A DNA stretch of 64,000 nt from Pyrinomonadaceae bacterium (GTDB lineage Bacteria > Acidobacteriota > Blastocatellia > Pyrinomonadales > Pyrinomonadaceae): contig DASVUH010000007.1 of assembly GCA_036387135.1 (NCBI GenBank), positions 2,105 through 66,104 on the forward strand, given 5' to 3'. Below, piece by piece: positions 3,223-38,252 of this stretch (its first letter is position 1; every line of letters begins with the position of its first letter). The position numbers and the translations under genes were made by a program. The notes below the pieces were generated by a model. The model had not been told where the DNA came from. It saw nothing but the letters and a program-made list of their open reading frames with translations, and searched no databases.

Positions 3223-3725
3223 CTATGACGAGATTTCTTTTGGCGTTTATAACTTTGTGTCTATTTTCCGTTTTCGCAAACGCTCAACGCGAAACCGATG
3301 TTTCCGCGATTCGCAGCGATGTTCAGAGCATCAACAAAAACTCGGCGAAGCTCAAACAAGCGACTGTTAAATTAGACGGAATTTCAACCGAAGGAGCCGA
3401 GCTGACGGTTTTTCGGGAAAATAATCAAATCAAAAAAATCAACGCCCAAATCTACGGCGAAATGGGTTATTCGATAATCGAGCTTTTCTACAAAGACGAA
3501 AAGCCGATTTTCATTTACGAGCGCGAATTTCGTTATGAAAAGCCGTTCGGGAAAGTCCTGAAAATCATCCCGACGCGGTTTTATTTCGCCAATGAAAAGC
3601 TCGTCAAAATGCTTTACGCGAAAAGAGAGATTTTTGCTGAAGACAAAGAGTACAACGAAATGCGCGACCGAATGATTTCGCTCTCGAAAACAATTTTCGA
3701 CGCGGCGAAAGATAAATCGAAATAA
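3219..3725 (+). CDS. Hypothetical small secreted protein
   Basis: Signal peptide MTMTRFLLAFITLCLFSVFANAQ. Start overlaps the upstream stop. Confidence 0.5.
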   Translation: MTMTRFLLAFITLCLFSVFANAQRETDVSAIRSDVQSINKNSAKLKQATVKLDGISTEGAELTVFRENNQIKKINAQIYGEMGYSIIELFYKDEKPIFIYEREFRYEKPFGKVLKIIPTRFYFANEKLVKMLYAKREIFAEDKEYNEMRDRMISLSKTIFDAAKDKSK

Positions 3726-35397: not shown

Positions 35398-36672
35398 ATG
35401 AACGAAAATATAAAGAAAACAAGATTAGAAAACGGTCTCACAATTTTGACGGAAAAAATGCCGGGCGTGCGTTCGGCGACAATCGGATTTTGGGTAAAAA
35501 GCGGTTCGCGTCATGAACCGGAACATTTAAACGGAATCTGCCATTTCATCGAACACTCGGTTTTTAAAGGAACTGCGAAGCGTTCGGCTCTCGATATTGC
35601 GGTTGAATCCGACAAACTCGGCGGAAATTTCGACGCTTTTACCTCGCACGAAATCACGGGTTTTACGATGAAAATCGTTGACAAATGCGTCCCGCAGGCT
35701 TTTGATCTTTTGGCGGATATGCTGGCGAATCCGCGTTTTGACGAGAAGGAATTAAAACGCGAGCAAAAGGTCATCATCGAAGAAATGAAAATGGTCGAAG
35801 ACACGCCCGAAGAATACCTGGGCGAGCTTTTCAACCGCGCATTTTTCCCCGCTCATCCATTAGGCTTGCCGATTGAAGGCACGCGCGAAACCGTTAAAAC
35901 CTTCGGTCACCGAACAACCGCCGAATTTCACGCCGCAGTTTTCGCGCCGTCAAACATCGTTATTGCAGCAGCCGGAAATCTCGAACACTCGCAACTGGTC
36001 GGATTAGCCGAAAAATCTTTCGGAAAAACAACGAACGACGAACAACGAACGACGAACAACGAACAACCGCAATTGGCAGCGCCAATCTTGCTCAAGAAAA
36101 AGCGCGAATTGGAACAAACGCATCTTATTATCGCCACGCCTTTTGTGCCGTCAAACAGCCCGCAGCGTTATGCGGCGAATCTTTTGACAAATATTTTGGG
36201 CGGCGGAACGGCGTCTCGTTTGTGGCAATCCGTCCGCGAACAACGCGGTCTGGCATATTCGGTCGGGGCAAGCGCGATTGCGTTTCAGGATTGCGGCATT
36301 TTTTCGGTTTATGCCGGGACTTCGCCAAAACATCTCGATCAGGTTGTTGATTTGTCAATCGCCGAAATGCGCCGCATCGTGCGCAAGGGGGTTTCAGCGG
36401 AAGAACTCGAACTTGTTAAAGAACAAGGCGTGGCTTCAATCCTGCTCGGTTTAGAGTCAACCAGCGTGCGAGCGGGAACTCTGGCGCGTCAGGAAATCGT
36501 TCACGGCAAAACGATTCCGATTGAGGAAACTCTGGCAAACATCGAAGCCGTCACGCCCGACGACATTCAAGCCGTTGCGCGAGAGTTTTTCCAAACCGAA
36601 CAAATCGCTCTCGCCGCGCTTGGCAATCTCAACGGGTTTAAGATAGAACGTTCACGGTTGAGCGTTTCTTAA
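35398..36672 (+). CDS. M16 family (insulinase/pitrilysin-like) zinc peptidase. Contains an in-frame heptamer-repeat insertion.
   Basis: Inverted zinc motif HFIEHSVFKGT (HxxEH) and a downstream EE. 424 aa. Confidence 0.85.
   Translation: MNENIKKTRLENGLTILTEKMPGVRSATIGFWVKSGSRHEPEHLNGICHFIEHSVFKGTAKRSALDIAVESDKLGGNFDAFTSHEITGFTMKIVDKCVPQAFDLLADMLANPRFDEKELKREQKVIIEEMKMVEDTPEEYLGELFNRAFFPAHPLGLPIEGTRETVKTFGHRTTAEFHAAVFAPSNIVIAAAGNLEHSQLVGLAEKSFGKTTNDEQRTTNNEQPQLAAPILLKKKRELEQTHLIIATPFVPSNSPQRYAANLLTNILGGGTASRLWQSVREQRGLAYSVGASAIAFQDCGIFSVYAGTSPKHLDQVVDLSIAEMRRIVRKGVSAEELELVKEQGVASILLGLESTSVRAGTLARQEIVHGKTIPIEETLANIEAVTPDDIQAVAREFFQTEQIALAALGNLNGFKIERSRLSVS
36028..36067. repeat. (CRACGAA)n heptanucleotide tandem repeat, ~5.5 copies, in-frame in the M16 peptidase gene (encodes TTNDEQRTTNNEQ)
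   Basis: Read directly. Same repeat unit as in the crtB-like gene at 23475..23507. Confidence 0.9.
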
Positions 36673-36675
36673 TTT

Positions 36676-36722
36676 ATGAAATTCACGGTTCTCGGCAGCG
36701 GTTCGACCGGAAATGCGGTTTT
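36676..36722. repeat. 47-bp direct repeat, copy 1: a duplicate of the first 47 nt of the MBL-fold gene. Left boundary of the vapBC insertion.
   Basis: atgaaattcacggttctcggcagcggttcgaccggaaatgcggtttt is identical to 37428-37474. It encodes an 18-aa remnant MKFTVLGSGSTGNAVLRL. Confidence 0.85.
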
Positions 36723-37152
36723 AAGATTGTAATGGATTGATTGTTTTCAAACCCGAAAAGCGGCTAAAATCGCTGTCCGTCGTTATGAGAACGGCATTAT
36801 GTTCGATAGCGAGCGCGGCGAGATGCGCATCCATAATCATTGCGGCTTTAATTTGTCAGACGGTTATCAGATTTTTGAAAATCGTCCAATGGCTTTCAGC
36901 GGGCAGCAGTATTCGCGCATTCGGAACTTCAAGCCAATCGCTCACAATTTCAGTGGCTTGAGTTGGAGTCAAAGGATTAGGAAATGCCCGCGCATTTGTC
37001 GAAATGCGTAGAAATGCCGTAATTGTTTGCCAGCCGAAACCGACCAAATCCGTACCGGAGAGTTGATTTTCGAGCCATTCGCGGCATTTTTCGTGTTCGG
37101 CGGCATCAGAATTATAGGCGTAAAGCAAAATGTTGGCATCGGGCAAATTCAT
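36721..37152 (-). pseudogene. vapC: vapC-like PIN-domain toxin gene with an in-frame TGA (plus coordinates 36856-36858) after codon 98. The C-terminal PIN segment containing the last conserved Asp is encoded beyond the stop.
   Basis: N-terminus MNLPDANILLYA (PIN Asp). The same frame continues after TGA as QIKAAMIMDAHLAALAIEHNAVLITTDSDFSRFSGLKTINPLQS*, the canonical PIN C-terminal motif. Confidence 0.6.
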
Positions 37153-37157
37153 TCGGT

Positions 37158-37388
37158 TTAATTTTGCTCGATTGTTTCAAGCAGTTCATTGATTTTGTCG
37201 TAATTTAAGTCTTCGCGCTTGCCCATCGAATGCGGGCGGATTTTAAAGGGTTTGCCGGTCTGTTTCGCCTGCAGACCGAGCCTCAGAGTTTCGTTAACGA
37301 TTTCTTTGAATGTCGCGCCGTCTCGCTGCCGCATTTCGCCCTCGAGTTTGGCAACTATGTCGTCATCAATTACTATCGTAGTTTCCAT
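37158..37388 (-). CDS. vapB: VapB-like antitoxin (76 aa), immediately upstream of vapC on the minus strand
   Basis: METTIVIDDDIVAKLE.. small N-terminal DNA-binding-like region with an acidic/helical tail. 5-nt gap to the vapC start. Only the C-terminal 76 codons of the long ORF 37158..37766 look genuine. Confidence 0.55.
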   Translation of the reverse strand: METTIVIDDDIVAKLEGEMRQRDGATFKEIVNETLRLGLQAKQTGKPFKIRPHSMGKREDLNYDKINELLETIEQN

Positions 37389-37427
37389 ACTGAAGATGTT
37401 AATTTCGCTCAGGTTTATTGTCAAAAA

Positions 37428-37474
37428 ATGAAATTCACGGTTCTCGGCAGCGGTTCGACCGGAAATGCGGTTTT
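37428..37474. repeat. 47-bp direct repeat, copy 2: the genuine 5-prime end of the MBL-fold gene. Right boundary of the vapBC insertion.
   Basis: Identical to 36676-36722. Confidence 0.85.
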
Positions 37475-38252
37475 GATTTCTGCCGGAAAAACAAAAGTTC
37501 TGATTGACGCCGGTTTGAGCGCGAAAGAAATTGTGCGCCGCTGCGTTGAAGTCGGCGAAGACGTTGCAAAGCTCGACGCGGTTCTCGTCACGCACGAACA
37601 TTCGGATCATGCGGGCGGTTTGCGGGTTTTGCTCAAAAGTCTGAATTGCCCGGTTTATATGTCGGGCGAAACGCTCGAAGCGTATCTTTTTGAAAAGCGT
37701 CACGTTAAGCCTGACGAAGGTGTTAAACGGACCGACGCGATTAAAGGGAAAGTCGTTGAAATTCAATCAAGCCAGGACTTCCGCATCGGTGAAATCGAGT
37801 TTGAGCCTTTCAGCGTGCCGCACGACGCGGCTGACAATTTCGGTTTCGTCGCCAAATATTGCGGAATCAGATTAGCGGCGGTGACGGATTTCGGGCAGAT
37901 GACGACGTTGATTTCACAAAAACTGCGCGGATGCGACGCGATTATTATTGAATCGAATCACAGCTTGCCGATGCTGCGCGCGTGTCCGATTTATTCGTGG
38001 GATTTAAAACAAAGAATCGCGTCGCGCACCGGGCATCTTTCAAACGAAGATTTAGCCGTCTGGCTTTCCGCTGAGTTTGACGGCGCGGCGCGTCACATCG
38101 TTCTCGCGCATCTCTCGCAAAAAGCGAACGAGCCGCATCTGGCGCGTTTAACCGCCGAACAAGCTATCGCGATGCGCTCGCCGCTTTTCAAAGCCGAAAC
38201 AAAAATCACTCTCACGCATCACAAAGAACCGACCGAGTGGATCGAGTTTTAA
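37428..38252 (+). CDS. MBL-fold metallo-hydrolase
   Basis: HEHSDHAGG metal-binding motif. N-terminus MKFTVLGSGSTGNAVLI typical of this fold. Start chosen at ATG 37428 rather than the upstream ORF start. Confidence 0.8.
   Translation: MKFTVLGSGSTGNAVLISAGKTKVLIDAGLSAKEIVRRCVEVGEDVAKLDAVLVTHEHSDHAGGLRVLLKSLNCPVYMSGETLEAYLFEKRHVKPDEGVKRTDAIKGKVVEIQSSQDFRIGEIEFEPFSVPHDAADNFGFVAKYCGIRLAAVTDFGQMTTLISQKLRGCDAIIIESNHSLPMLRACPIYSWDLKQRIASRTGHLSNEDLAVWLSAEFDGAARHIVLAHLSQKANEPHLARLTAEQAIAMRSPLFKAETKITLTHHKEPTEWIEF

Follow-up and report, generated by a model that had tools for sequence, protein, structure and literature searches.

The window, a 64,000-nt stretch of DNA from an uncultured Pyrinomonadaceae bacterium, carries a small toxin-antitoxin (TA) cassette between an M16 peptidase gene (35398–36672, plus strand), which forms the conserved left flank, and an MBL-fold hydrolase gene (37428–38252, plus strand), which forms the conserved right flank. 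The 705-bp vapBC cassette (36723–37427) is enclosed by perfect 47-nt direct repeats, a pair for which no occurrence is expected by chance. The proximal copy (37428–37474, plus strand) is the real 5′ end of the MBL gene. The initial 47 nt of this gene recur as a pseudo-copy in the distal copy (36676–36722, plus strand), which is placed 3 nt after the M16 stop and overlaps the vapC stop by 2 nt. The resulting junction after M16 reads TAA TTT ATG, and the distal copy would encode an 18-aa stub (MKFTVLGSGSTGNAVLRL). Mechanical ORF prediction and the ENA calls start the MBL gene at an ATG at 37230 (340 aa, overlapping vapB antisense), whereas homologues and the NCBI calls place the true start at 37428 (274 aa). 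On the minus strand of the cassette, an intact vapB gene of 76 aa (37388–37158) is followed after a 5-nt gap by the vapC ATG at 37152, so that a small antitoxin gene lies upstream of the toxin gene in the same operon, as in type II vapBC modules. A recombinase gene was found neither in the 705-bp cassette nor in its immediate flanks. The window is 100% identical to a 116,502-nt MEGAHIT contig (L003; ENA ERZ27253093 k141_50364).

The full vapC frame (37152–36721, minus strand) consists of 98 sense codons, a TGA, 44 sense codons, and a TAA. Minus-strand translation of 36721–37152 thereby bears out the original prediction that the vapC ORF ends after 98 codons at a TGA at 36856–36858. The 5′ part (36856–37152, minus strand) corresponds to the NCBI protein HEX8564189.1, a ‘TA system VapC family ribonuclease toxin’ of 98 aa that matches the product exactly and is titled ‘MAG TPA: TA system VapC family ribonuclease toxin [Pyrinomonadaceae bacterium]’. 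The deposited record therefore presents the fragment as an ordinary VapC toxin and does not mark it as a pseudogene, which is an annotation problem. The premature stop is codon 99 (36858–36856, minus strand) in the context GUC UGA C, where orthologues have GGA (Gly) or AGA (Arg). Beyond it, the 3′ remnant (36721–36855, minus strand) comprises codons 100–143 and the original TAA (36723–36721), and its 44 sense codons translate as QIKAAMIMDAHLAALAIEHNAVLITTDSDFSRFSGLKTINPLQS.

When the stop is masked, the 143-aa product scores 128.3 bits against the NCBIfam model TIGR00028 (cut-off 73.6 bits), aligning protein residues 1–142 with model positions 2–142 of 143, and 50.7 bits against the Pfam PIN model PF01850 (cut-off 23.6 bits). 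The encoded 98-aa ORF alone reaches 17.8 bits with PF01850, which is under the cut-off. A database search returned 2519 homologues; the matches listed are 141–147 aa long, and the best two among them are 97% and 95% identical and both have 143 aa. The predicted full length of 143 aa for the toxin is confirmed by the end-to-end TIGR00028 match and by the equal length of the 97%-identical homologue. Among solved structures, the nearest homologue is VapC43 (Rv2872) of Mycobacterium tuberculosis (PDB 7VWO; E=5.8e-23), whose alignment covers query residues 4–141 and includes the lost segment. Both proteins belong to the same PIN subfamily (TIGR00028), are homologous over their full length, and share the DAHLAA and D-x-D-F motifs of the C-terminal part. 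The window gene differs from VapC43 and the TIGR00028 family in being broken at codon 99, and its partner antitoxin has no match of solved structure and only a sub-threshold one to PF09957. By descent, the locus is a VapC gene, but its 98-aa product is not a complete VapC.

In PIN domains, a cluster of acidic residues binds the catalytic metal. An alignment of 20 homologues gave D5, E28, D108, D126, and D128 as the invariant acidic residues of the VapC subfamily, the catalytic members of which we assign on the presumption that general knowledge of PIN domains applies here. D5 and E28 precede the premature stop, and D108, D126, and D128 lie in the remnant beyond it, so that the 98-aa product does not have the full set of conserved acidic active-site residues. 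The original prediction held that the truncation removes the PIN C-terminal motif with the last active-site Asp; the motif is indeed lost, but the loss extends further than one Asp, as D108 and D126 are both gone. Because the metal-binding acidic cluster loses these two residues, we infer that the 98-aa product would have neither nuclease activity nor toxicity.

The TGA could in principle be decoded. The window contains 41 non-overlapping ORFs of 200 aa or longer, with TAA as the stop of 27, TGA of 10, and TAG of 4; since TGA ends 10 of these 41 long ORFs, the genome uses the standard genetic code, and an alternative code is ruled out by this stop-codon usage. Selenocysteine insertion and structured recoding were also rejected. 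An Rfam scan of 36300–37700 (E up to 10) matched neither a SECIS nor any other relevant RNA family, and an 81-nt segment covering the TGA and the sequence 3′ of it forms a fold less stable than 198 of 200 shuffles (z=+1.65). Position 99 of the 20 homologues is Gly in most, Arg, Asn, Tyr, or Glu in the rest, and never Cys, and no relative has the TGA. As far as can be judged at the level of sequence, both mechanisms are excluded. No tRNA genes lie within the window.

In Escherichia coli, UGA-C is the leakiest stop context, and the vapC stop is indeed followed by a C. Near-cognate decoding of UGA-C could then yield a little full-length VapC (e.g., G99W), leaving the module attenuated rather than dead, and such leakage would be compatible with the undamaged downstream frame and with the variability of position 99, where homologues have G, R, N, Y, or E. 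However, there is no recoding signal or stable structure 3′ of the stop, a young mutation explains the undamaged remnant equally well, and the stop occurs in no relative, the other alleles being TAA at unrelated positions, among them codon 25, at which a common read-through design would be impossible. A stop that is found once, at a position that varies, makes programmed read-through implausible, and we give leaky termination very little credence.

Comparison with intact VapC homologues, which had been proposed as a check, showed that the frame after the stop is homologous to them and does not stay open by chance, and that codon 99 is GGA or AGA in orthologues. The orthologue contigs comprised the best homologues and the other members of the 90% cluster, all of them at the M16–MBL locus. 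Codon 99 is GGA in L001, L004/L005, L086/L087, L088–L090, and L092 and AGA in L002, and TGA is found in the window alone among the orthologues compared. Because orthologues read GGA, the lesion is best described as a single-base nonsense change, G-to-T on the coding strand. Intact 143-aa alleles are present in L001, L002, L086/L087, L088–L090, and L175 and in the proteins P0126 and P0127; the window stop is premature relative to these intact orthologues of the same locus, in a genome with the standard code.

Other members of the clade carry lesions of their own in the orthologous vapC. Two records, L004 (NCBI GCA_036400075.1, 107,823 nt) and L005 (JGI 3300034140, 115,036 nt), have E25* through a GAA-to-TAA change and encode a VapC that is otherwise the same as that of the window. 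The most distant clade member (L092), whose flanks are 86–87% identical, has E117*, again GAA-to-TAA. All three point lesions (window, E25*, E117*) are nonsense codons, and the knock-outs in related lineages are independent of that in the window. On a 671-nt contig (L091, 1–671), the first 155 nt of vapC run straight into the distal repeat at its middle, everything from nt 156 up to that point being absent; the join shows no more than 1 nt of microhomology, and the product ends in ...LRISTAENREFH. This deletion allele may be either a genuine minor variant or a chimera of the assembly.

These relatives bear on the possibility that the organism has GGA at codon 99 and that the T is an artefact of sequencing or of the metagenome consensus. 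Such an error would account for the TGA being a singleton among the orthologues examined, and the allele was inspected only on the window's own MEGAHIT contig (L003), to which it is confined among the contigs examined. Yet substitution errors are rare in Illumina consensus contigs, NCBI, JGI/IMG, and ENA sources all list a protein identical to the 98-aa product, and relatives' vapC genes show two other nonsense alleles and a deletion, one of the alleles being present in two records (NCBI, JGI). As the relatives carry recurrent real lesions, we regard an error as very unlikely.

Between the window and L092, vapC has a dS of 0.67 and a dN/dS of 0.09, and the dN/dS of vapB is 0.08, therefore both genes were under purifying selection for most of their history. 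The low value for vapC further implies that the gene was functional until recently and that the stops are events on terminal branches. In the close clade, vapC shows 17 synonymous, 14 missense, and 2 nonsense changes against 295, 951, and 41 opportunities, respectively. Missense changes are thus depleted about 4-fold relative to synonymous ones, and nonsense changes occur at about the synonymous rate, a comparison that with 2 events only is indicative at best. The window TGA is young, because the downstream remnant has no indels and a single window-specific change, which is synonymous. Both pieces of the gene are still open reading frames, so the 98-aa protein might have acquired a new role, either as a dead VapB-binding decoy or co-repressor or as one half of a split PIN domain together with a 39-aa ORF (36840–36721). 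This reading is barely credible, as the internal ATG at 36840 is preceded by no Shine-Dalgarno-like motif, the allele is a singleton without any sign of selection for a split architecture, and the truncations in relatives are at other positions.

The antitoxin gene was predicted to be intact, and it does form an uninterrupted 76-aa ORF of the same length as in close relatives. Every close relative encodes a VapB of 76 aa that differs by two substitutions or fewer, the exception in ORF length being the most distant relative (L092), and the window VapB is identical to those of L001, L002, and L088. It is called an antitoxin by its position, by its conserved pairing with vapC, which is kept in all orthologous loci and in the outgroups, and by a sub-threshold match to PF09957 (E=0.069); searches of Pfam and NCBIfam gave no family above threshold, and those of PDB sequences gave no match. 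Upstream of vapB lies a promoter-like site, TTGACA-17-TAACAT (37396–37424, minus strand), and the TTTTTGACA motif of this region is found at the same place in the outgroup loci. The vapB ATG follows 7 nt past the −10 hexamer and has no Shine-Dalgarno sequence (37388–37424, minus strand), for which reason the vapBC mRNA is probably leaderless. In L092 (1018–1061), a 1-nt deletion abolishes the vapB stop, replaces the last five residues, and lets the frame enter the vapC start (...ETVEEIKPNEFA); this stop loss is a possible second step of decay. The intactness of vapB in the window fits selective retention and too little time to decay equally, and the two cannot be distinguished.

Both copies of the 47-nt repeat are present in every clade member, including L092 (~86% identity). 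The outgroup loci (L173/L174 and L176), whose VapC is 68–69% identical, have the order M16, vapC and vapB on the opposite strand, a HAD hydrolase, and MBL, with no repeat and with the vapC stop abutting the M16 stop; in more distant Acidobacteriota, MBL directly follows M16. A target-site duplication from a fresh insertion was considered for the repeat and rejected, since the repeat is clade-wide and the outgroups have vapBC at this place without it. No empty site, with just one copy of the repeat, turned up in a scan of genome contigs with the MBL protein, whose matches did not exceed 70% identity; the synteny of these contigs was informative for the M16–MBL adjacency alone, and the 2-kb insert of L012 is unrelated. 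The 47-nt repeat is, from this distribution, evidently an old rearrangement scar. Two ideas for its origin are a homology-facilitated illegitimate recombination anchored in MBL and an integration by a recombinase acting in trans.

The repeat copies have not evolved separately. In L088, the copies (2679–2725 and 3431–3477) have two lineage-specific substitutions common to both, and the copies of the window are identical though the duplication predates ~14% divergence of the flanks, which argues for concerted evolution of the repeats. The copies of L092 differ ungapped at 12 of 47 positions, about half of which reflect a register shift by a 1-nt deletion, and a gapped alignment gives 7 mismatches in 43. 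Synonymous divergence between the window and its close relatives is 0.055–0.097 in the cassette and 0.18–0.26 in the M16/MBL flanks (Fisher p 7e-5 to 5e-9), which suggests that the cassette was exchanged among lineages more recently than the flanks or is under unusual constraint.

The recurrent vapC knock-outs might reflect, rather than neutral decay, a polymorphism under selection while recombination keeps the cassette moving through the population. We consider this unlikely. Three points speak for it: cassette synonymous divergence is 3–5 times below that of the flanks; nonsense changes occur at about the synonymous rate; and vapC-null cells that keep vapB would be immune to intact alleles arriving from outside, with the 47-nt direct repeats permitting precise excision once the toxin was dead.

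Further variation lies immediately next to the cassette. Relatives have different inserts of 132–749 nt, lodged exactly between the M16 stop codon and the distal-repeat ATG at the site equivalent to window positions 36673–36675: 530 nt with a 158-aa lipoprotein-like gene (L001 822–1351 and L004 3348–3878), 749 nt with genes of 93 and 151 aa (L002 1203–1951), 220 nt (L086 3478–3697), and 132 nt (L088 3478–3609). The window and L092 have no insert, only the bare TAA-TTT-ATG junction. The extra genes in the relatives' inserts had no family match, and no mobility gene or third repeat copy was recognisable at the site. By these comparisons, the M16/distal-repeat junction is an insertion hot spot. 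Within the M16 gene itself, the window has a 20-nt direct repeat with 14-nt spacing (36027–36060) in the part that encodes TTNDEQRTTNNEQ, a low-complexity linker of the peptidase that is variable among relatives too.

Two observations were made on TA cassettes elsewhere. An unrelated metagenome contig (L099) has a vapBC of the same family inside a 105-nt direct repeat (1572–1676 and 2458–2562, 90% identical) that goes back to the 3′-terminal part of a urocanate hydratase-like gene, with a second TA pair downstream; it is a second TA cassette flanked by the duplicated end of a neighbouring gene. Nine metagenome loci share a conserved element of ~60 nt (TTGGCGATTCGGCGGAAGTTTATGCGGTGAAAGTTATGTTAAAATCGCAAACGAGGTGAAA), which they carry at 11 sites in all (L094 2226; L097 369 and 1120; L099 2815; L116 461; L121 743; L123 134 and 874; L134 244; L143 375; L155 2534). 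An antitoxin-like start codon follows within a few bases at 10 of the 11 sites, the antitoxin families differ, and in some loci two copies flank a cassette. This inter-cassette element, which is absent from the window, may be a shared promoter or leader or a cassette-boundary element.

Taken together, the uncultured Pyrinomonadaceae bacterium very probably carries a chromosomal type II vapBC module whose present allele lost its function recently. The module is an old resident of the M16–MBL locus and has been under purifying selection; a G-to-T change in Gly codon 99 of the coding strand (GGA to TGA) then ended translation after residue 98. The product would keep D5 and E28 and lose the strand and helix elements bearing D108 and D126, and vapB and its promoter are unchanged. 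Loss of the toxin is the only viable first step of TA decay, and this toxin-first order is expected, since a cell that lost its antitoxin first would die. The decay of ccdO157 in E. coli, studied by Mine and colleagues in 2009, is reportedly an erosion of the toxin-first type.

Toxin-first pseudogenisation is the dominant decay path of chromosomal TA systems, and TA pseudogenes of Photorhabdus affect the toxin only (N=185) or the toxin and the antitoxin (N=186), with few antitoxin-only cases (N=8) (Belot et al. 2026, Mol Biol Evol, PMC13617665). Like the chromosomal type II modules described there, that of the window has lost the toxin first, by point mutation or truncation, with the antitoxin kept; its pseudogenisation recurs independently across related genomes; and conserved core genes flank it, mobility genes being absent from the vicinity. 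The window differs from that study in its host, an uncultured acidobacterium known only from MAGs, and in that the three vapC point lesions are all nonsense codons. The original interpretation, toxin inactivation with retention of the antitoxin along a common decay path, is supported by the stop usage, the lack of an RNA signal 3′ of the TGA, the orthologue codons, the lesions of relatives, and the survey of PMC13617665. A further likeness concerns the Photorhabdus ParE/RelE 26 TA operon, which is flanked by 24-bp res-I-like palindromes (PMC13617665): both are bare TA operons without mobility genes between two copies of a sequence that was probably ancestrally single-copy. In contrast to those resolvase-site palindromes, the window repeat is 47 nt of the coding 5′ end of the neighbouring gene, and in the window's outgroups the same position holds the cassette but no repeat.

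The vapC TGA allele is a fresh example of the well-described toxin-first erosion of TA systems and involves no new mechanism, and it leaves knowledge of how TA systems work unchanged. Only the cassette between its repeats and the hot spot beside it, the parts of the locus still without an explanation, might repay study. What the locus offers is a clean natural toxin-first case from uncultured soil Acidobacteriota, with three independent nonsense alleles of one orthologous vapC.
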